Source of the DNA: a virus
DNA length: 64,000 bases
Virus record (IMG/VR): IMGVR_UViG_3300035145_003920
Location: 1 to 64,000 of that record
Reading direction: 5' to 3' (one strand)
Within the stretch, counting starts at the first letter, position 1, and every line of letters starts with the position of its first letter. A program made the position numbers and the translations under genes. This document shows, piece after piece, positions 3,826-13,165 of this stretch. The notes beneath the pieces were generated by a model that was given only the letters and a program-made list of their open reading frames with translations, made no database searches and had not been told where the DNA came from.

Positions 3826-4395
3826 TTATTCTACTAAATAATCAATCCATTTAGTTCCTTTAGTATCGGTATTTGGAAAATAAAAAACATATTTTGTATC
3901 TCCAAATTTTAATATTTTTCTAAACCCAGAAGGAATAGTTGCTCCCCCAGGTACTTTATCTTCTGAAAATTCAACTTCAACTCTAACTTCTACTTCAAAA
4001 AAATTAGCTAAATTTCTTTCAAATCCTTCTAATTCTTTCCAAACTCCTCTATTTAATCCTTCATGTTGTAAAGCTGAATTTAGATAGGTAAATGTTTTAT
4101 ATAATGTTTCTTTATCACAATTAAATGAAGCAGCAGGTGCTAAATGACCTTTATCCCAAATATTATTTTTATAATCATTATTATCTGAGGTATGGATATT
4201 ATCTTCAGTATAAAAATCCATTCCTGTTCTTGATGTTGTTCCTTTAGGACATTGTACTTTATACTCAACCCAAATAGGTTGTTCTTTTTCTTGATCATAT
4301 TGAACAATAAAAATGTCAGTTTCAATTAACTGACTTTGTAAAAGTAAAGGGAGTATAAATAATAAACTAGTAAATTTTTGTTTCATCATCTTCAT
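3826..4395 (-). CDS. Exported DNA/RNA non-specific endonuclease (NucA/Serratia family)
   Basis: WDKGHLAPAA and LNRGVWKELE motifs; N-terminal signal peptide LLFILPLLLQS|Q (true start probably 4386). Confidence 0.88.
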   Translation of the reverse strand: MKMMKQKFTSLLFILPLLLQSQLIETDIFIVQYDQEKEQPIWVEYKVQCPKGTTSRTGMDFYTEDNIHTSDNNDYKNNIWDKGHLAPAASFNCDKETLYKTFTYLNSALQHEGLNRGVWKELEGFERNLANFFEVEVRVEVEFSEDKVPGGATIPSGFRKILKFGDTKYVFYFPNTDTKGTKWIDYLVE

Positions 4396-5581
4396 TTGGT
4401 AAAGAACTTTTTATTTGGTTAATTTCACCTATAATTTTATTTGATCTAAAACTTGATAGTCCTGGTTTTAATTGTGATTCTAAATCTTTAATCATTTTTT
4501 TTGCTGCTATAATTTCGGATTCATCAATTATTCCATCTTCATTTAAATCTAGGATATTTTTTTGTTTTTTTTTGATCTCTTCTATTTTATCTAGATTTTC
4601 CATAAATTCTTTTTGTGTAGTCATTTCTTCAGCATCTTTGACTTTTATCTCATTTATAGGATTTTCTGGTGGGGTTGTACCTCTTGCTTCATCATAAGGT
4701 TTATCCCATAAATTTTCTTTAATATCTTCTTCTACTTCTTCTCCATATAAATTTTGTACGTATTTTTTCCTAGGGTATGCCTTATTAAAAGCAAAGTTAG
4801 CAGCAATTACTAAAGATATTGCTAAAGGATCAAATACAAAAATAATAATAAGTAATAAAATATTAATAATTTTATCCATAGGAGTACCTGTAAGTCCCGA
4901 TAGATACTTAAGGGGACCTAATTCTCCAGCTACTTCGGTGTTATTATCTAGTTCTAATACTTGTAATTGAAATTTTTGTAAACTATCAGCTGCTACTTCT
5001 CTTTTGGATTGTACATTTTTCCTATTTTCTTCTTCAACCGAAATACGATTTTGTGCCAAACGTAACTCAGCCGTACTGATGGTGTTTCGAACGCCTCCAA
5101 CCACACTGGTGTCCTTGATCTGTATAGACTGCGACTTGGCATTACTAAGAGTACTAATATTGTCCAGTATTTGTTGAAGTTCTTTATCATATCTATCTAA
5201 ATCTGTTTGGTAAAAATCTACTTTTTGTTGAATAAACTTTTTTTCGTTTTCAACAATAGTAAGTTCATTAAATGTTTCTTGATAAGCAGCACTTAAAAAT
5301 CCATAAATACCCATGCTAGTAATTAATACAAGTATTGTAGCTGCTATAGTTAAATAAGTTCTAAGGAGTTTATTTATAGTATCCCAATATTGGTATAATA
5401 AAGAAGCAGTAACTAATTTAGCAAATTCTAAAGAACCAGCCATTATAATGACTTCAAATTGAGCTCCAGCAAATAGTTTACTTAAACCATAAACTGAGTA
5501 AAAAGCCGCTGATGCACTTACAGACAATGCTGAAAATGCTATCATAAATGGGAACAATCCTTGTTTGAGATTCTTAAGCAT
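4367..5581 (-). CDS. Multi-pass membrane protein with coiled coil
   Basis: Three N-terminal TM segments, long heptad region, further TM (IIIFVFDPLAISL), EF-hand-like loop DLNEDGIIDESE. Confidence 0.8.
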   Translation of the reverse strand: MLKNLKQGLFPFMIAFSALSVSASAAFYSVYGLSKLFAGAQFEVIIMAGSLEFAKLVTASLLYQYWDTINKLLRTYLTIAATILVLITSMGIYGFLSAAYQETFNELTIVENEKKFIQQKVDFYQTDLDRYDKELQQILDNISTLSNAKSQSIQIKDTSVVGGVRNTISTAELRLAQNRISVEEENRKNVQSKREVAADSLQKFQLQVLELDNNTEVAGELGPLKYLSGLTGTPMDKIINILLLIIIFVFDPLAISLVIAANFAFNKAYPRKKYVQNLYGEEVEEDIKENLWDKPYDEARGTTPPENPINEIKVKDAEEMTTQKEFMENLDKIEEIKKKQKNILDLNEDGIIDESEIIAAKKMIKDLESQLKPGLSSFRSNKIIGEINQIKSSLPNEDDETKIY

Positions 5582-5618: not shown

Positions 5619-6038
5619 CTATTTTCTAACACCCTTATGCTTATCAATACGATCTAATAAATCATTTAAAACTTCTGTTTTAATAAAACCAGCCATTGAT
5701 GCATTTTTAAGGGCACTTATTAATTGTAAAACTACAAGAGGCATAACAACGGTTTCACTTAACCATCCAGCCCCAGGGATACTTTTCTCGATTACTAATA
5801 TAACTGTTAATATAATAGTCCAGAAAAATAGGGTTCTAATAATCTTAATTGCTTTATAAGTTTTGAACCCTTCTCTTTTTATACCAGCACAAATGCCAAA
5901 AAAACCATCGGCAAAAATTAATGTTGCTATTGCTAAATACTGTTCTGCATTTTGCATGGTAAGTTCCATAAAATAGGAACATATGAAAGCTAATGTCATA
6001 CTGGCACTGGATAAAATTAATTTTGAAGTGTTCATCAT
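5619..6038 (-). CDS. Putative holin
   Basis: 139 aa, 3-4 TM segments, basic C-terminus, next to the putative endolysin. Confidence 0.65.
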   Translation of the reverse strand: MMNTSKLILSSASMTLAFICSYFMELTMQNAEQYLAIATLIFADGFFGICAGIKREGFKTYKAIKIIRTLFFWTIILTVILVIEKSIPGAGWLSETVVMPLVVLQLISALKNASMAGFIKTEVLNDLLDRIDKHKGVRK

Positions 6039-6042
6039 GAAA

Positions 6043-6684
6043 CTATTCTGATTGTTTATGCGGTTCTAAAGATTCTTGGTAATTTATATCCCCACTTTCA
6101 ATTAATGTGTATGTGAATGAATTACCCCAGACATCTTTAGCATTATTACAAATCTGCATAAATTCTGTAAAATTATCATTAGATGAAATTACTTGACAGC
6201 CTGCAGACCATTTATCTATTTGAGTAGAAGTAGCACCTGTCCACTTAGTTGCTCTATGAATATTAATACCAAATATACCTTCGAAAATTCTATCTGGGTT
6301 ATGATCATATCTTCCATCCCTATTGTTGTCTCTAAATACTTTTACTGGTTTCTTTTGTCTTAAAGCTTCATATTGACCTCTATGTAAACCAATTTCATGT
6401 GAACCTTTATATTGACCTGGTACTAGAATGGCTACACCATCAGGATTTAATAAATTTTGTTCCCAATGTAATCCTGGATCGCAGGTACCTTTATATTCAT
6501 GATAATAATCTGTTCCATCTACTGAATAAGAAACAGTGATCCAATCATCAAATTTATTTGTTACTAATTGGTCTGTACCTGAATTTCTGATTCCTACAAT
6601 ATTTAAATTGTAGTTACCATTTGTATACCAAGTATAACCTAAATGTTCTACTGTTAACCTAATTTTTTCTCTTGTCCAAGCCAT
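6043..6684 (-). CDS. Putative endolysin, L,D-transpeptidase (YkuD)-like
   Basis: GINIHRA...WSAGCQV His/Ser-x-Gly-Cys motif; flanked by holin-like genes. Confidence 0.6.
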   Translation of the reverse strand: MAWTREKIRLTVEHLGYTWYTNGNYNLNIVGIRNSGTDQLVTNKFDDWITVSYSVDGTDYYHEYKGTCDPGLHWEQNLLNPDGVAILVPGQYKGSHEIGLHRGQYEALRQKKPVKVFRDNNRDGRYDHNPDRIFEGIFGINIHRATKWTGATSTQIDKWSAGCQVISSNDNFTEFMQICNNAKDVWGNSFTYTLIESGDINYQESLEPHKQSE

Positions 6685-6709
6685 TTTTTATAAACTTTTT
6701 ATATAAATA

Positions 6710-6961
6710 TTATTCTTTTTTACCTTCTAATAGACCTTTTTCGTATTGCATTTCTTTTTCAATATCTATTATTCGGTCTTCTAATTCATTAATTACTTTA
6801 ATTTTTTTATCTAACCTTTCATGTACCATGGTTAGTTCAGCTTTTAATGCTGTAAACTCAGAAAATAAAGTTCCAGCAGTAAAAATCGCAGCCAATAATC
6901 CTACAACTATTGACCAATTATTCGTTAAAAACTTGTTTAGATTCACTTCGTTATTTGGCAC
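6710..6961 (-). CDS. Single-TM coiled-coil protein
   Basis: 83 aa, TM followed by heptad repeats. Confidence 0.7.
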   Translation of the reverse strand: MPNNEVNLNKFLTNNWSIVVGLLAAIFTAGTLFSEFTALKAELTMVHERLDKKIKVINELEDRIIDIEKEMQYEKGLLEGKKE

Positions 6962-6973
6962 TTTATCTTCAAT

Positions 6974-7228
6974 TTACTTTTTATTACCAAAGATCTTGCC
7001 TGCTTCAGCTATACCAAAGCATCCCAAAGTTATAATTAAGAAAGAATCATAAATAAACTCCTGGATTACCAAATCTTTTCCAACAAATCCTGTAATAATA
7101 TCAGCAGCAGCAAATATTACCATTACTGCAAAAGCTGCGAAACCAACAACTGATTTTTCATTGATGTCGTTATCATCTTTAAAAATATTCTTAAAAGCCA
7201 TCCATTTACGGTTTATATAATTAAACAT
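6974..7228 (-). CDS. Two-TM membrane protein (holin-like)
   Basis: 84 aa, two hydrophobic helices, basic end. Confidence 0.7.
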   Translation of the reverse strand: MFNYINRKWMAFKNIFKDDNDINEKSVVGFAAFAVMVIFAAADIITGFVGKDLVIQEFIYDSFLIITLGCFGIAEAGKIFGNKK

Positions 7229-7274: not shown

Positions 7275-9068
7275 TTAAAACTGGAATTTAGAACCGATAG
7301 TTGCTGACCAAGTTAGCGGAATACCTGGAAGAGTAGTGCCTATTACATTGCCTCCTATATTGAATGTAAATCTTTGGGTTAAATTTATATCAAAATTAGA
7401 ACCTACTATATAAGTTACATGTTCATTCCATACTATTTCTCCTTTTCCTGGTTTTCTTATATCAAAATTATATGATACTGGATTTAAAGCTAATGCTAAC
7501 ATTGGGGAAATTGTAACTTTTTTAGTTGGGAATGGTTTAGTTCCAAATAATACCCCAGAAGGCATTATCATTACTGTATTATCTATATTAATTATTGTAC
7601 CTGAAATTGCATACCCACCTACAAATCCTTTCCAAAAATTATCTTTTTGTCCCATATAAACATTACTTAACCCACCAGAAAGTACTTTAGTACCATAGAT
7701 GTACATAAAGTTAGCACTAATAGATTGTATAAAGTCAATAGAACCTTTTTCATATATAGACCCAAAATATAAATCTTCTTTTTTAGTCTCTGGGTTATAT
7801 AGATAATATTTTACTTCTCTATCATAATTAAACCAAACATTAGATTGAGATAATCCTATACTAAATTGTTCTAGATTATCCCAAATCATAACATTAGCAG
7901 AATAAGTAGTAGCACCTGTGAGAGAGGATTGAGATAAACCAAAGCTAGCTGCTCTACTAAAAGATCCATCTAAAGCTTGTTGGGTAAGTAAATTAGCAGA
8001 TACATTTATAGGATTACGTTTTTTCTTTTCCTCTTTTTCTTCTTCCTCTTCACTATCTTCTTCTTCAGACTCTTCCTCTTCTTCCTCTTCAGATTCTTCT
8101 TCACTTTCTTCTTCTTCACTTTCTTCCTCTTCTGAAGATTCTTCTTCACTTTCTTCAGATTCTTCTTCACTACTTTCTTCTTCTACTTCTTCCTCACTAC
8201 TCTCTTCTTCAGAGCTTTCTTCAGAGCTTTCTTCACTATTTTCATCTTTATTTTCTTCACTTGATGAATCCTCGCCACCTTCTTCTCCTTCACCACCTGA
8301 ATCTCCTCCTTCTTCTCCTGACGAATTATCATCGCCGCCATCTCCATCCCCAGAAGAGTTATCATTATCTGATGAACCATTATCATTATCCGAGGAATTA
8401 TCCCCAGACGTATCGTCACCCCCAGAATTCCCGCTATCGCCAGAATTATCTCCTCCTGAGTCTCCTCCTGAGTCACCGCCTGAAGAATTGCCTGAGTCCC
8501 CTCCTGAATTATTTGATGAGCCTGAGCTTCCACCTGAGTCACCTCCAGAGGAACCTGAATTACCACTGTCTCCTCCTGAATTTCCTGAATTGCTTGATCC
8601 AGAAGAGCTTCCTGTGTTTCCACTGCTACTTCCAGATCCTGTTGATCCTGTATTTCCATTTGTATTTGTATTAGTTGAACCTGTGTTTGTTGAACCAGTA
8701 TTAGTAGCACCAGATGTGGCATTACTAGCTGCGTTAGTAGCATTACTAGTTGCATTACTCGTAGTATTTTGAGTTGTATTATTTGTAGCTGTATTGGTTG
8801 AACATGGAGATAAATTTTGCCACCATGCATAAGTTTCATCTAACCAAGCTTTTAAAGTACCATTTGTATATTCTGCCCAAGTAAATACTTTTACTCGGTT
8901 ATAAAATGCTACTGTTGCAGAACCATTAACAAAATTAGCTGTAACTACTTTAGTTTCATTAGTACACCTATCTACATAAACATTAGTAATAGTTTGGGTT
9001 TGCCCTACTAGAGAGAAACTCCAAAAGAAAATAAGTATGTAAAATAGTTTTCGCACATTAATGATCAA
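7275..9068 (-). CDS. Exported protein: small N-domain, long low-complexity linker, probable C-terminal outer-membrane beta-barrel
   Basis: Signal peptide FSLVG|Q; T/N-, G/S/D- and E-rich tracts; about 250 aa of amphipathic strands ending ATIGSKFQF. Confidence 0.8.
   Translation of the reverse strand: MIINVRKLFYILIFFWSFSLVGQTQTITNVYVDRCTNETKVVTANFVNGSATVAFYNRVKVFTWAEYTNGTLKAWLDETYAWWQNLSPCSTNTATNNTTQNTTSNATSNATNAASNATSGATNTGSTNTGSTNTNTNGNTGSTGSGSSSGNTGSSSGSSNSGNSGGDSGNSGSSGGDSGGSSGSSNNSGGDSGNSSGGDSGGDSGGDNSGDSGNSGGDDTSGDNSSDNDNGSSDNDNSSGDGDGGDDNSSGEEGGDSGGEGEEGGEDSSSEENKDENSEESSEESSEEESSEEEVEEESSEEESEESEEESSEEEESEEEESEEESEEEEEEESEEEDSEEEEEKEEKKKRNPINVSANLLTQQALDGSFSRAASFGLSQSSLTGATTYSANVMIWDNLEQFSIGLSQSNVWFNYDREVKYYLYNPETKKEDLYFGSIYEKGSIDFIQSISANFMYIYGTKVLSGGLSNVYMGQKDNFWKGFVGGYAISGTIINIDNTVMIMPSGVLFGTKPFPTKKVTISPMLALALNPVSYNFDIRKPGKGEIVWNEHVTYIVGSNFDINLTQRFTFNIGGNVIGTTLPGIPLTWSATIGSKFQF
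8030..8800 (-). repeat. Coding low-complexity repeats (GGDS/SGNS and EESSEE)
   Basis: Recurrent cctgagtc/cctgaa and tcttcttc units on the + strand. Confidence 0.85.
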
Positions 9069-9768
9069 AGATACGCTTACGTATCATTCGTTTAACTACT
9101 TTAGCAACTCCTGTTTCTAAAGCTTTTTTAGTAGCAGTACCAATAGATGATTGATTAAATTTAATTTCTTCTAAGTTTTCATCATTTAATAAAGTCATTT
9201 CTCTAGTAGTAGTTGATTTACCTAATCCTGAACCTGTCATATAAAGTCCAGTTTCAGCATCTACCATTTTAACTTGCAAACCTAATCTTGTAACTAAATT
9301 GCTTTTAACTCCATCTTTTAGACTAATAGATTCATCTTCAGAGATAGAAAAATCATATACTTCTATGTAACAGAAGTAATTAGCAAGCATAATTTTACCT
9401 TTAATGTTTATTTGATTTGCAGTAAATCCTTTTTGAGATGCCTTATATTGAGTAACCATTCTATCTTTGATTTCGTCTTTTGTTTCAACAAATTCAAATC
9501 TGAATGTCTCATCTAAGAATGCTACAGTTATATTGGTTAATCCTAATCCAACTCTATAATCACCTAGTTCCGGATATTGTGATAATACTTCATCACTAAC
9601 ACCAATATTAAGTAATGCTACAGTTACAGGATCGCCGTTGTATTCTGGTATTGACCAAATTGATTCCCTAGATTCAAACCCAGCAGTATAATCTTCGGTT
9701 GTTGTCTTTCCCAGTACTTGCCCAAATGCTACATTTAGCCCAAGTAAAAATACGATAAAATATTTCAT
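9058..9768 (-). CDS. CsgG/HfaB-like exported protein
   Basis: Signal peptide VAFG|Q; RFEFVE and LGLQVKMVDAETGLYMTGSG segments resemble the CsgG fold; no lipobox Cys. Confidence 0.65.
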   Translation of the reverse strand: MKYFIVFLLGLNVAFGQVLGKTTTEDYTAGFESRESIWSIPEYNGDPVTVALLNIGVSDEVLSQYPELGDYRVGLGLTNITVAFLDETFRFEFVETKDEIKDRMVTQYKASQKGFTANQINIKGKIMLANYFCYIEVYDFSISEDESISLKDGVKSNLVTRLGLQVKMVDAETGLYMTGSGLGKSTTTREMTLLNDENLEEIKFNQSSIGTATKKALETGVAKVVKRMIRKRIFDH

Positions 9769-9769
9769 C

Positions 9770-10021
9770 TTATCCTAGTGTGTCGAAAATACCAAAAGTA
9801 GCATTTTCAAATTGAGCTGGGTTTGTAATTAGTTGGAACACTACTGTTAACCATCCAACCCAAAATAATATTATAAGGCTTGTTACCCAAAACCAAATAA
9901 TAAAATCTACTGGATTCTTAGATTTAATAGCATTTTGCCATAGCTCAACCACTGGATAAAAAAAGTATGAAATAAATTGGATTAGCCAAAGATTTTTCGT
10001 ACGTTGTATTATATAATTCAT
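9770..10021 (-). CDS. Small membrane protein (83 aa)
   Basis: Start reassigned to the ATG at 10021 (A-rich leader); the longer ORF-track version runs through a GC-rich hairpin. Confidence 0.65.
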   Translation of the reverse strand: MNYIIQRTKNLWLIQFISYFFYPVVELWQNAIKSKNPVDFIIWFWVTSLIILFWVGWLTVVFQLITNPAQFENATFGIFDTLG

Positions 10022-10078
10022 GGTTTTTGTTTTAATTGTTATACACTTCACTTTATAATTAATCGATCCGTGAATAGA

Positions 10079-10104
10079 GAAGACCGGGTTGCCGCCTGGT
10101 CTTC
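10079..10104 (-). promoter_or_regulatory. Intergenic hairpin with GCGGCAAC apex
   Basis: GAAGACCAGGCGGCAACCCGGTCTTC; same apex as the hairpin at 13103-13122. Confidence 0.5.
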
Positions 10105-10110
10105 CACATT

Positions 10111-10392
10111 CTACCAATCGTATTCTTCTTTTCTTTCTTCTGTTTTAGATTTTTCTTCTTTAGGAGGAAGTACTATAGTCTTAGAAATTACAATTGTATC
10201 TTTAGTGGCTTCAGGTAAATTAATAGTTTGTTCCATTGCTGGTTGTTCTACTACTACTTCTTCTGCTACACCAAATATAGCTTCCATATTGGTTATTACT
10301 AAACCACCTGCAGCGGTAATAATAAGTCCAATTGTTGTAATTACTTGGTTTTTTATTTGACTAAAAAATCCTCCTTGTTTATCTTCACTCAT
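10111..10392 (-). CDS. Single-TM protein
   Basis: 93 aa, TM near the N-terminus, acidic/Pro tail. Confidence 0.7.
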   Translation of the reverse strand: MSEDKQGGFFSQIKNQVITTIGLIITAAGGLVITNMEAIFGVAEEVVVEQPAMEQTINLPEATKDTIVISKTIVLPPKEEKSKTEERKEEYDW

Positions 10393-10395
10393 TTT

Positions 10396-10773
10396 TTAAA
10401 ATTTAGAAAATACTGTTACTCCTATTACTGTATGATCTTCTTTAGCTAATTCTAATTTATATGAACTTTTTTCTAAAGTATTTACATACACTTTTAATAT
10501 ATTATCACCTTCTTTACCATTAAGTCTTTCTTGAGAAATTAATTCATTAGTCATACTATGTCTAATTTTTACTCTATAAACCCCATCTGAAGGTAATTTA
10601 ACATTCATAGCTACTCTTTCTGATACGATAGCACTAGCTAATTTAACCCCTACCAAATCTTCAATAAATAAAGCTTCTGGTACTTCTTGGTTTTCATCTA
10701 CCACAAGAAAATCGTCATCTTGTGCACATCCTAATACTAAAAATAATAGTAATATTGATAATAATTTTTTCAT
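10396..10773 (-). CDS. Lipoprotein with Ig-like / T9SS-CTD-like domain
   Basis: Lipobox VLG|C followed by AQDDD; C-terminal beta-sandwich resembling a type A T9SS sorting domain. Confidence 0.7.
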   Translation of the reverse strand: MKKLLSILLLFLVLGCAQDDDFLVVDENQEVPEALFIEDLVGVKLASAIVSERVAMNVKLPSDGVYRVKIRHSMTNELISQERLNGKEGDNILKVYVNTLEKSSYKLELAKEDHTVIGVTVFSKF

Positions 10774-10776
10774 TTT

Positions 10777-12480
10777 TTATTGAATTATAAATTTAACTTT
10801 TTGTCCATCAGCTTTAATTCCTTCTGTTAATTTAAAAGTAATTAACCCTGATGTATTTTGTAATGTTTCATTTGGAGTGAATATTAATTTGTAAGCATTT
10901 CCTGTTTTAATTGATACTTCTCCTGATTGATCTAAAGATCCTATATTTACTTTTGCTTGTTGTTCTTTATGATTTGCAAAATTAGTCATTGTGTTTCCTG
11001 TATCGAAAATTACATTATCTAATTCTAAAATAGTTTCATCATAATTTACGTTAAATTGAGCACCTACTACTCCTTCTTCTTGTAGATTAATAGTAAAATG
11101 TACTTTACCATCTACTAATTCAGAAACAACATCTAAATTACTTTCAATTTCATTTTGCAAAGCCATTGAAGTAACACTCATTCTTGCTTGAGAAGATTGA
11201 GCTGCACCTGTTTGGGCATAAGCACTTCCTTCTGCTGTTGGAACATATCCATGGGAAAAATCAACATCACCTATTAAAGAATGACCAAAACTAAATGCTT
11301 TATCATCATCAGTAGGTTCTATAATAAATTTCTGTCCGAAATAATAATCATCAGTTGATACACCTAATTGTTCTACTCTACCCCAAACATTTTTAGATCC
11401 ATTAGTTGAATTAGTAAACCATTCACTTAATCCTTCTACACCTTGAACATGACCTAAAGCTTGATAAGCATCTTCTGGTGTTATATTTCCTGAGTTATTT
11501 AATTCACCTAACAAATATTGTATTGCATAATCAAATGTATTTTGGTTGCTTGTATCTCCAGGTCCTCCTGCTCCAGTAGCATTACCTTGTTTAAAGATTA
11601 TAAAAGCATCTGATATAGTTAATACATCATCTAACCAAGTAGCTTGATCATTTACTTTAATTTCAAAATAGTATTTTTCATCTACAATTAAATTGCTAGT
11701 AATTACTTGCCCATTTGCATCAAAATTACCTGTTTCAATTGCATCTCCTGTTTTACCATTAACTCCATCAGCAGCATAAATTGCATAAGTAAAATCAGTA
11801 GCATGTTGAGCTTTAGCAGCTGAATTTAATGTTATAGTAACATTACCTGCATTTACTCCACTTACACTAGCTAATGTAATGTTTTCTGTACCCGCATTTA
11901 CATCTAGTAATCCTGAACTAGCACTTATATCTTCAAAGTTAGCAAAGTTAAGATCTGTAACATTATTATAATTAGAATAACCTGTACCCTGTCTATCTTT
12001 TATTTTAAATTTAACATATATCCAAGGAGTAGATAAAGGTAAATCTGAAGCAGACTGTATAATTACTCTACCTACGGACCAATCTGATACTACAGAATAA
12101 GAACTATTTCCTGCATTTAACCATCCTTGTTCATATTGTACATCTAAATCTGATTCAGCTATTGCTACACCAGCATAAGTGTTAATAGGATTAAATCTAT
12201 ATCCATTCCACATATTCCAAGAATTTTGAGCATCTGAAGGTAAACCACTTGTTGGGTTAAATTCATGTGAAACATATTCTAATAGTTTATTGTTCCATTC
12301 AAAGTCAAAATGAACACGATCAGGTGTCATTCCACTTCCATCTACCCCTTCAAATTTTACAGTAATTTCTTGTCCTACTTGAAATCCATTTGAGTCACCA
12401 TCTATATAGCTATGACTTAAATATCCTTGTTGAGAAAAAGCTATAAAAGGTAATATTAATAAAAATAATAATTTTTTCAT
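10777..12480 (-). CDS. Exported cohesin-dockerin-cohesin-like protein
   Basis: Signal IAFS|Q; HFDFEWNNKLLEYV and GAQFNVNYDETILEL cohesin-like strands; paired dockerin-like loops DVLTISDAF and ELNNSGNITPEDAY. Confidence 0.7.
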   Translation of the reverse strand: MKKLLFLLILPFIAFSQQGYLSHSYIDGDSNGFQVGQEITVKFEGVDGSGMTPDRVHFDFEWNNKLLEYVSHEFNPTSGLPSDAQNSWNMWNGYRFNPINTYAGVAIAESDLDVQYEQGWLNAGNSSYSVVSDWSVGRVIIQSASDLPLSTPWIYVKFKIKDRQGTGYSNYNNVTDLNFANFEDISASSGLLDVNAGTENITLASVSGVNAGNVTITLNSAAKAQHATDFTYAIYAADGVNGKTGDAIETGNFDANGQVITSNLIVDEKYYFEIKVNDQATWLDDVLTISDAFIIFKQGNATGAGGPGDTSNQNTFDYAIQYLLGELNNSGNITPEDAYQALGHVQGVEGLSEWFTNSTNGSKNVWGRVEQLGVSTDDYYFGQKFIIEPTDDDKAFSFGHSLIGDVDFSHGYVPTAEGSAYAQTGAAQSSQARMSVTSMALQNEIESNLDVVSELVDGKVHFTINLQEEGVVGAQFNVNYDETILELDNVIFDTGNTMTNFANHKEQQAKVNIGSLDQSGEVSIKTGNAYKLIFTPNETLQNTSGLITFKLTEGIKADGQKVKFIIQ

Positions 12481-12581
12481 TTTTTTTTATTCATGTGTTT
12501 TGTTAACGATGGGTACATTTCATATCCGATTTTTGTAAGCCAATTGTCAACTTTAATTAGTATTTGTTTTAATTTATTCAT
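12477..12581 (-). CDS. Micro-ORF (34 aa)
   Basis: MNKLKQILIKVDNWLTKIGYEMYPSLTKHMNKKK; ATGA overlaps with both neighbours. Confidence 0.6.
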   Translation of the reverse strand: MNKLKQILIKVDNWLTKIGYEMYPSLTKHMNKKK

Positions 12582-13051
12582 AATTTTAGTTTGTCAATAA
12601 GTTGTTCACATACTTTTTTAAGTGCACTTGACACCCCTGCCTGAGAAAACTTACCTCCATTATCTATTATTAAAGTAGATGTTGAAATTGATTTTGAAGT
12701 GCCTTTAGCATTTACTTCTTTTACTATTTCCCCATCTATAATTAATCTTGCTCCTGCTACAATTTGCGTTATATCTACTTTACGTCCATATACTGCAAAT
12801 TGAGCACTATTCTTTTTAACATCAAAATAAAGTAATTCAACCTTGATACTCTTTGGTGCATTATCATCTAAATAATAGTCTCTATCTTGAACTACTTCTT
12901 CCAATATATTTTTTACACCAAATGCCAGGTTACGGTTACCCGCAAAAGGGCCCATAACAATGTTATTGGTAACTTCTTCTATGCGTATAGTTTCTTGACT
13001 ATACCCATTAATGCCTAGTATTAAGGCAATAATGAAACATGTTAATTTCAT
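12578..13051 (-). CDS. Exported protein, first gene of the surface operon
   Basis: Signal NGYS|Q; C-terminus FSQAGVSSALKK resembles FNQSSIGTATKKAL of the CsgG-like protein. Confidence 0.75.
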   Translation of the reverse strand: MKLTCFIIALILGINGYSQETIRIEEVTNNIVMGPFAGNRNLAFGVKNILEEVVQDRDYYLDDNAPKSIKVELLYFDVKKNSAQFAVYGRKVDITQIVAGARLIIDGEIVKEVNAKGTSKSISTSTLIIDNGGKFSQAGVSSALKKVCEQLIDKLKL

Positions 13052-13102
13052 ATTTAACTTTTTCGTTAATAAAAAACGTTTTGAGAAACTCTTAGATTGA
13101 AA

Positions 13103-13122
13103 AACATTGTTGCCGCAATGTT
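13103..13122 (-). promoter_or_regulatory. Leader hairpin with GCGGCAAC apex
   Basis: AACATTGCGGCAACAATGTT just downstream of a TATGTATC late-promoter variant (13130-13137). Confidence 0.5.
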
Positions 13123-13137
13123 GATCAGTGATACATA

Positions 13138-13165
13138 TAAAAAAAGGGGGTCAAATTGACCCCCT
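13138..13165 (-). terminator. Rho-independent terminator
   Basis: AGGGGGTCAA-T-TTGACCCCCT inverted repeat followed by a T-run. Confidence 0.85.

Follow-up and report, generated by a model that had tools for sequence, protein, structure and literature searches.

A conserved phage gene cassette for predicted host-envelope proteins with CsgG-fold, cohesin and outer-membrane barrel domains

Clusters of csgG and csgF genes ("curli", type VIII secretion) of unknown function are carried by pelagimyophages and by the Methylophilales phage Melnitz, and an uptake pore, sibling capture and lysis timing have been put forward as guesses at their use (PMC7029224, PMC9004378). Here we describe a cassette of seven genes in positions 1 to 64,000 of the IMG/VR virus record IMGVR_UViG_3300035145_003920 (the whole of this 64,000-nucleotide stretch being "the window"), whose products, named by their length in amino acids (aa), are a divergent CsgG-family protein (p236) with a small relative (p157), a predicted inner-membrane anchor (p93), a second small membrane protein (p83), a tethered outer-membrane barrel (p597), a cohesin/dockerin protein (p567) and a predicted surface lipoprotein (p125). 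Like the described clusters, the cassette sets a CsgG-family protein within a small conserved group of exported proteins, with no curlin genes, and the guesses at its use coincide. The described clusters encode a clear proteobacterial-type CsgG together with CsgF, whereas the window has no CsgF, its CsgG is recognizable only by profile and fold, and its partners are the barrel, the anchor, the cohesin/dockerin protein and the lipoprotein. A tblastn search of deposited phage genomes with p236 returned only the cultured Flavobacterium phage immuto, and the cassette therefore looks like a separate acquisition.

Other known systems resemble individual parts of the cassette. FlgT, PelC, LptE and TraT are outer-membrane families, of which LptE works with the barrel LptD and PelC with the barrel PelB, both of these being larger barrels that move lipopolysaccharide or polysaccharide, respectively. 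The p236 model matches PelC (Z 9.9) and LptE (Z 8.8), and translational coupling links the p236 gene to that of a barrel; unlike those proteins, p236 is unlipidated in the clade of the window phage (the window clade), and its contact with the barrel is proposed by analogy. With type Va autotransporters (NalP, EspP, EstA) and FapF, p597 shares a C-terminal 12-stranded barrel with an aromatic end, as well as an N-terminal domain and linker, but in contrast to the autotransporters it has no Pfam autotransporter match, and the domain in the "passenger" position has 70 residues and sits on a disordered, polyanionic tether. As for cohesin-dockerin assemblies, both cellulosome-type and non-cellulosomal ones share with p567 the cohesin domain(s) and a dockerin-like calcium loop plus helix; they differ in that the phage has both modules in one protein, a degenerate first loop, no enzymes, and predicted anchoring by the C-terminal domain (CTD) of type IX secretion system (T9SS) cargo or by a lipoprotein, where theirs is by S-layer homology domains or sortase. 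Llp of phage T5 and TraT of the F plasmid are mobile-element proteins that sit in the host outer membrane and block further entry, each a single protein with a known target. The cassette likewise encodes predicted outer-membrane proteins on a mobile element, and p236 resembles the TraT decamer, if distantly, in structure (Z 8.0). Finally, "Cryophage" encodes T9SS cargo with Por_Secre_tail domains that is strongly variable between variants (PMC7468147). Sister clades of the window phage also carry Por_Secre_tail cargo, but the "Cryophage" cargo consists of enzymes and PA14 proteins in flexible islands rather than belonging to a fixed multi-gene cassette, and in the window the CTD-like domain is a separate lipoprotein.

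An earlier reading of this DNA (the original prediction) had considered the combination undescribed, and we likewise found no description of it in the literature on CsgG, phages and cohesin, on immuto, or on phage T9SS. New here are the splitting of the cohesin/CTD gene, the recognition of a surface-export signal in p125, a residue-by-residue comparison of the p236 hairpins with those of E. coli CsgG, fusions of the CsgG-like domain to kinases and caspases, the joint duplication and movement of p567 and p125, and a mini-ORF (open reading frame).

Layout, export signals and conservation

The viral record, from a large phage whose hosts would be Flavobacterium-type bacteria, comprises 77 kb, about half of a genome. 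The window has 30% G+C and carries all of its genes on the minus strand, among them genes for sheath, capsid, adaptor, ribonucleotide reductase (RNR) and a DnaB-type helicase. The cassette extends from a terminator down to position 7275, flanked upstream by the RNR genes and a 76-aa membrane protein and downstream by lysis genes. Its seven closely packed minus-strand genes and one mini-ORF of 34 codons are separated by 0-97 nt, with several stop codons overlapping the following start codon. The genes and domains are:

12578-13051, minus strand: p157 (157 aa), exported small CsgG-fold protein; signal peptide followed by Gln
10777-12480, minus strand: p567 (567 aa), exported; cohesin-like N-terminal domain, immunoglobulin-like (Ig-like) part, dockerin-like segment and C-terminal cohesin
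10396-10773, minus strand: p125 (125 aa), lipoprotein with a predicted Bacteroidota surface-export signal and a T9SS-CTD-like beta-sandwich
10111-10392, minus strand: p93 (93 aa), predicted inner-membrane anchor; one membrane segment and a charged periplasmic tail ending D-W
9770-10021, minus strand: p83 (83 aa counted from a conserved Met, the ORF being open up to 10117), two membrane segments; in only some relatives
9058-9768, minus strand: p236 (236 aa), exported CsgG/HfaB-family protein; without a lipobox in the window clade
7275-9068, minus strand: p597 (597 aa), made up of the following three parts
8793-9005, minus strand: p597 residues 22-92, small conserved N-terminal domain with two invariant Cys
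8013-8792, minus strand: p597 residues 93-352, tether of graded low complexity (T/N/S, then S/G/D, then poly-E, ending KKKR)
7275-8012, minus strand: p597 residues 353-597 and stop, predicted 12-stranded outer-membrane beta-barrel

As the original prediction had it, all seven proteins bear a signal peptide, a lipobox or a membrane segment. Read from the sequence, p157, p567, p236 and p597 have leaders of the signal-peptidase-I type with a Gln directly after them, which is invariant in the alignments of the p157 and p567 families; p93 has one and p83 two membrane segments; and p125 has the lipobox LGC, its family sharing an invariant Cys16 after LG/SC. A Gln following the Sec leader is the Bacteroidota "Q-rule" (PMC5837995). 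The lipidated Cys of p125 begins the sequence C-A-Q-D-D-D, and that of most relatives C-x-K/R/Q-D-(D/E), including C-A-K/R-D-(D/E)-(D/E), while the published signal for surface export of Bacteroidota lipoproteins is C-X-K-(D/E)2-X or Q-A-(D/E)2 after the lipidated Cys (PMC5080379). p125 thus agrees with the published signal, surface exposure itself being predicted. The Q-rule Gln and the surface-export signal place the host in Bacteroidota, and the export signals on all seven imply that the seven proteins leave the cytoplasm. That the cassette is a conserved set of phage proteins, predicted to be sent to every layer of the host envelope, is well supported.

Conservation was followed across IMG/VR, where the order 157-567-125-93-(83)-236-597 is kept in 39 contigs, even with differing flanks. 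A second clade (>126 contigs), one further locus and immuto keep a core consisting of a p93-like anchor, the CsgG-like protein, the tethered barrel and the small paralogue, with adhesin and lectin genes that differ. In immuto (vB_FspM_immuto, host Flavobacterium sp. LMO8) the syntenic genes encode gp014-gp019. The synteny search proposed with the original prediction thus found the genes together in well over 100 related phage contigs; the cassette occurs on viral contigs of up to 166 kb, and in one cultured phage. Across the 39 contigs, the identity of p236 is 73-97% in 38 (52% in the remaining one, L039), and that of p567 and p125 drops to 24-30%. The p236 and p597 genes overlap or abut in nearly all loci, and the p93 gene overlaps that of p236 in immuto and L081. 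One locus (L003) has had its central block swapped between near-identical flanks, and other exported binding proteins are inserted in the cassettes of relatives (L001 4785-5783, L081 10062-11132, L046 10113-11312). The inserted proteins are a C-type lectin (immuto), a GEVED-domain protein with a weak match to the bacterial Ig-like family Big_1 (E = 0.006, below cut-off), and a protein of 400 aa that belongs to no known family. Against deposited phages, neither megablast of the region nor tblastn of p567 gave a match, and a scan of genome contigs with P0131, a relative at 37% identity, found no bacterial homologue.

The upstream end of the cassette carries the following elements:

13145-13165, minus strand: intrinsic terminator closing the upstream unit (RNR genes, 76-aa membrane protein), with a 9-bp stem, 6 GC pairs and a T-run
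13131-13139, minus strand: promoter-like motif TATATGTAT, consensus YATATKTAT, directly 3' of the terminator
13103-13122, minus strand: 5' leader hairpin with loop GCGGCAAC, read from the sequence; probable 5' end of the cassette transcript
12477-12581, minus strand: mini-ORF MNKLKQILIKVDNWLTKIGYEMYPSLTKHMNKKK, 34 codons

Relatives have a GC hairpin and T-run at the position equivalent to the terminator. The raw count of YATATKTAT is not enriched (11 observed vs 13.6 expected), so the motif is informative by its placement only: the same site after the terminator is kept in diverged related loci, and six of the seven minus-strand copies lie in short spacers 5' of genes, including the head-tail adaptor gene. 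This conserved placement and spacer location make TATATGTAT promoter-like, and it is probably the promoter of the cassette, with late timing as a supposition. The stems of the leader hairpin vary among relatives and remain complementary (ACATTG/CAATGT, ACAGTG/CACTGT, ATAGGG/CCCTAT); an earlier reader had pointed to about 10079 as well for this hairpin. The mini-ORF overlaps the p157 stop (ATGA) and, via an A-run, the p567 start. Its peptide is conserved in three loci (L002, L005, L022) and is found in no others except L020, L033 and L037, where it is fused in frame to the p567 homologue, ahead of that protein's signal peptide; the mini-ORF could represent either a leader peptide or a slippage site. 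Where the original prediction counted eight packed ORFs behind a terminator and a late-type promoter, seven genes are upheld and the eighth is probably this mini-ORF, and the terminator hairpin and promoter-like motif are likewise upheld, lateness being a conjecture.

The core: CsgG-fold proteins, anchor and tethered barrel

Although p236 alone has no Pfam match, several comparisons place it, firmly, as a divergent member of the CsgG/HfaB family, as originally proposed. An exhaustive search gave 213 representative relatives; a family profile of 36 sequences matches E. coli CsgG (3x2r, E = 3e-5), and 17 of these 36 pass the Pfam CsgG model (PF03783), the best at 3.7e-23. The AlphaFold2 model (pLDDT 83) has the CsgG alpha/beta fold with a long C-terminal helix, its top Foldseek matches are all CsgG (E = 4e-8), and VIA aligns 167 residues with CsgG 4uv2 (Z 12.9, rmsd 4.2), followed among its neighbours by FlgT, PelC (Z 9.9), LptE (Z 8.8) and the TraT decamer (Z 8.0). 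For p157, in which a C-terminal helix similar to that of p236 had been noticed, hhalign of the two families (probability 88%, E = 3e-6, 127 columns) makes it, by profile, a short paralogue of p236. The p157 family profile has no meaningful match in the PDB, and p157 itself gives weak YajG/Lipoprotein_16 matches. No cassette protein matched CsgE, CsgF or curlin in Pfam or NCBIfam, which agrees with the original statement that this is not a curli system.

The original prediction also implied a secretion pore of the CsgG type, which has become doubtful. The CsgG channel is a nonamer with a 36-stranded barrel, to which each subunit contributes two membrane hairpins (PMC7304575). In p236, beta-hairpins with some polar/apolar alternation lie at both of these positions, but relative to E. 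coli CsgG hairpin 1 is shorter by 6 residues and the hairpin 2 region by about 8. Hairpin 1 has a conserved Glu-x-Glu (Glu144, Glu146) on an otherwise apolar face in the phage clade, and the model of the monomer leaves the second hairpin unformed. The window-clade p236 has no lipobox, the leader ending ...VAFG|QVLG with no Cys, while the homologues of the sister clades carry one. In metagenomic relatives (P0168, P0183, P0221, P0203 and P0232) the CsgG-like domain is fused to a caspase or a Ser/Thr kinase and can therefore act as a soluble module, which suggests that it may also serve as a periplasmic sensor or oligomerization module. We make no firmer statement against a pore, since in number of charged residues the p236 hairpins could not be told apart from those of E. 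coli CsgG. With the charge count uninformative, the doubt comes from hairpin length, the conserved Glu, the absent lipid anchor and the domain fusions, and as none of these four is decisive we regard a CsgG-type pore as improbable though still a serious candidate.

The predicted anchor p93 belongs to a conserved family, with homologues in immuto and both sister clades, that shares the membrane segment, a KDT(V/I)V motif and a C-terminal (F/I/Y)DW; its tail is short and charged, and it has no spanin match. For p83, relatives align from residue 32-33 of the 115-codon ORF.

The third component of the core, p597, is divided into a small domain, a tether and a barrel. The N-terminal domain is conserved in three clades (alignment A7), with C35, G70, W75 and C89 invariant, and its profile has no PDB or Pfam relative. 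The tether of 260 residues has a net charge of about -74; in relatives its length ranges from 123 to 327 residues, with an acidic run before a final basic cluster in every case. The AlphaFold2 model of the C-terminal part, which began at residue 345 and so includes 8 residues (345-352) ahead of the barrel, is all beta, with a pLDDT of 89.4, and VIA matches it to the NalP translocator (Z 20.9), KdgM (20.0), EstA (19.5), FapF (19.2) and EspP (18.7). The protein ends in ...GSKFQF, and throughout the family the last residue is hydrophobic, mostly aromatic. At the sequence level the barrel belongs to no family: neither the protein nor 22 relatives have a Pfam match, there is no PDB sequence match, and the profile search found relatives in the phage clade only. 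We take the C-terminal domain, with confidence but on the strength of a model, to be an outer-membrane barrel, and the originally noted "OM barrel with a long acidic stalk" is borne out in both of its parts. Phage-encoded barrels as such are not new. Some p597 relatives (e.g. P0288, P0290, P0298) bear the label PF27936.1, and this recent Pfam family may cover part of p597.

The variable unit: cohesin protein and lipoprotein

The C-terminus of p567 is firmly assigned, by sequence comparison, as a cohesin. Residues 451-551 match Pfam Cohesin (PF00963) at 24.4 bits, against a cut-off of 24.1, as do 13 of 20 relatives, and the profile of the domain matches the PDB cohesins 3l8q and 4ums (E = 4e-4). 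The other modules are less distinct. The N-domain profile weakly matches cohesin 3l8q (E = 0.0014), with cohesins making up six of its nine PDB matches, and the cohesin profile A10 matches both ends of the sister-clade cargo proteins; hhalign of the two end domains of p567 against each other gave a probability of 2% and did not reveal an internal duplication. Mid-protein, the family profile weakly matches the type I dockerin 5m2s_B (E = 0.0028). In this segment the second loop, E326-N-S-G-N-I-T-D337, is EF-hand-like, with D337 invariant, and the first loop is degenerate; neither p567 nor its relatives match Pfam dockerin (PF00404). Of the "cohesin-dockerin-cohesin" protein of the original prediction, the C-terminal cohesin therefore stands, and the dockerin and N-terminal cohesin are weak profile matches. 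Between the dockerin-like segment and the C-terminal cohesin, residues 404-410 (11250-11270, minus strand) form a motif, G-D-x-(D/N)-x-S-H, of which G404 and D405 are invariant in the alignment and S409 and H410 nearly so.

The window p125 itself has a single match, to DUF3244 (0.052). Its relatives support the T9SS-CTD-like lipoprotein that had been proposed, 11 of 21 matching Por_Secre_tail (PF18962; best 1.3e-7) and 12 matching DUF3244. In the window this CTD-like domain is a stand-alone lipoprotein, not the C-terminal part of a cargo protein. The second clade and L042 have instead a single protein of 630-647 aa, with a cohesin (E = 5e-13) and then Por_Secre_tail (E = 8e-14), and gp015 of immuto is likewise a cohesin plus Por_Secre_tail. 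The presence of both domains in one protein implies that the binding unit of the sister clades is surface-bound, as predicted from its sorting domain, and that the window clade has cut a T9SS cargo protein exactly between cohesin and sorting domain; the sorting-domain piece, p125, gained a predicted lipoprotein signal in this clade. This T9SS-cargo status of the sister-clade adhesin was overlooked in the original prediction, as was the link to lysis genes set out below. The genes of p567 and p125 are duplicated jointly in L023 and L024 and relocated jointly in L021, from which it appears that the two proteins work as a pair.

Surface remodelling, lysis or secretion

We tentatively favour, at something short of an even chance, a remodelling of the cell surface late in infection, in which the core services the outer membrane and the variable unit binds a surface target, for masking or adhesion. 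At the outer membrane, the core would consist of the anchor p93, of p236 with p157, and of the barrel p597 with its tethered disulfide domain; by analogy with PelC/PelB or LptE/LptD, p236 might form a ring or funnel beneath the barrel rather than a pore. The fast-evolving binding unit, p567 with p125, a single T9SS cargo in the sister clades, would then come to lie on the cell surface, and surface binding would be changed late in infection. The likeliest use would be the masking of receptors against adsorption of other phages, and of the phage's own progeny on cell debris; the other possibility is cell-to-cell or cell-to-particle adhesion. This reading is favoured by the divergence of p567 and p125 to 24-30% identity while p236 stays at at least 73%, and by the lectin and GEVED-domain protein that relatives add, and it has a precedent in the variable T9SS cargo of "Cryophage". 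Several points weigh against it: we infer the assembly, the location and the timing alike, and the late promoter is deduced from the motif by itself; the tether and N-domain of p597 could face either outward, as in autotransporters, or the periplasm, as in FapF; the window-clade p567, having no CTD, would need some other route across the outer membrane; and a CsgG-fold protein and an inner-membrane anchor are both dispensable for receptor masking. The recurrent adjacency to holin and endolysin genes, moreover, suits a role in lysis at least as well. Next to the cassette in the window are:

5619-7228, minus strand: lysis genes, encoding an 84-aa protein with two membrane segments, an 83-aa Rz-like protein, an endolysin and a holin-like protein (PHROG matches: Rz-like spanin 3.9e-5, endolysin 1.8e-18, holin 5.6e-4)
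6710-6961, minus strand: the Rz-like gene among these, i-spanin-like, with a membrane segment and coiled coil
4367-5581, minus strand: 404-aa protein after the holin-like gene, with several membrane segments and a long coiled coil; no PHROG match

The 404-aa membrane protein travels with the cassette in most relatives.

Spanins carry out the outer-membrane step of lysis in phages of Proteobacteria. A less probable but substantial alternative to surface remodelling is that the core does a spanin-like job, linking the envelope layers and breaking the outer membrane, or timing its breakage, once the endolysin has done its work; the polyanionic tether might bind divalent cations of the outer membrane and so weaken it. 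The window cassette leads straight into the lysis genes, and homologues of these were detected within 14 of the 25 long loci in the window clade and within 36 of 36 second-clade loci, on differing sides of the cassette; the remaining 11 long window-clade loci, however, have no detected lysis gene nearby. The Rz-like protein gave the sole spanin-family match, its gene has neither an embedded nor an adjacent ORF for a partner lipoprotein of the outer membrane, and a homologue is present in just 3 of 39 related loci, points that count in favour of a lysis role; that the window already encodes an Rz-like protein speaks the other way. In the sister clades, the p93 gene and an overlapping gene for a lipoprotein-type p236 resemble the Rz/Rz1 layout, but p93 has no coiled coil, and p236 is a folded domain of 220 residues, unlike the small proline-rich o-spanins. 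p93, with its short charged tail, and p125, a beta-sandwich with a surface signal, do not look like the halves of a two-component spanin either. It is hard to see what lysis would need the cohesin, dockerin, lectin, CTD and surface-lipoprotein parts for, and the fast divergence of the binding parts resembles surface recognition. Among deposited phage genomes a p236 homologue was detected only in immuto, and the cassette is therefore not a general lysis solution for Bacteroidota phages. A more elaborate variant, which we hold to be unlikely, is a multi-layer lysis machine in which a CsgG-fold ring, the tethered barrel and the inner-membrane anchor time or effect the opening of the outer membrane independently of spanins, and in which the lipoprotein supplies a T9SS sorting domain in trans, carrying the CTD-less cohesin protein to the surface.

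Still less likely, in our judgement, is a secretion channel, with p236 as a CsgG-like pore or p597 as a FapF-like gated barrel, that would export the unfolded tether and N-domain of p597, or p567. By structure and by profile, p236 matches the CsgG channel best, and its hairpins sit, with some polar/apolar alternation, at both membrane-hairpin positions; these nonetheless fall short of their counterparts in E. coli CsgG by 6 and about 8 residues, one has the conserved Glu on its apolar face, the window-clade protein has no lipid anchor, CsgE, CsgF and curlin were not matched, and in relatives the domain is a soluble module fused to kinases or caspases. FapF (Z 19.2) and autotransporter translocators are among the matches of the barrel, a disordered acidic segment of 260 residues would be a suitable substrate for narrow channels, and p567 without a CTD requires some export route, but the sister clades send their adhesin through the T9SS and so need no extra channel, yet keep the core. 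Lastly, it is very improbable that the cassette encodes ordinary proteins of the virion or its assembly, or that wrong binning has put bacterial genes on the contig: p125 weakly matches crAss tail hub protein A (E = 0.005, below cut-off) and p93 a minor head protein PHROG (E = 0.008), but the Sec, lipoprotein or barrel targeting signal on every protein, and a location well away from the sheath, capsid and adaptor genes (33-43 kb), with nucleotide-metabolism genes on one side and lysis genes on the other, argue against virion proteins, and other viral contigs, as long as 166 kb, carry the cassette too, as does a cultured phage. Of the outcomes named beforehand as counting against the original prediction, namely other folds, genes that do not co-occur in relatives, and ordinary virion components, we found the contrary for the first two, and the third is very unlikely.

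Phages of Flavobacteriia help to turn over the carbon of algal blooms. To our knowledge, barely anything is known of how they leave their hosts or alter the host surface, and recognized spanins are rare among them. Carried by well over 100 viral contigs and by a phage that is in culture along with its host, the cassette offers a handle on both phage exit and surface alteration. If it masks receptors or glues cells together, the spread of infection in blooms and on particles would change; if it acts in lysis, its way of getting past the outer membrane would be a new one. The fission of the cohesin-plus-CTD protein, in turn, would be a natural experiment on the sorting of proteins to the Bacteroidota surface.

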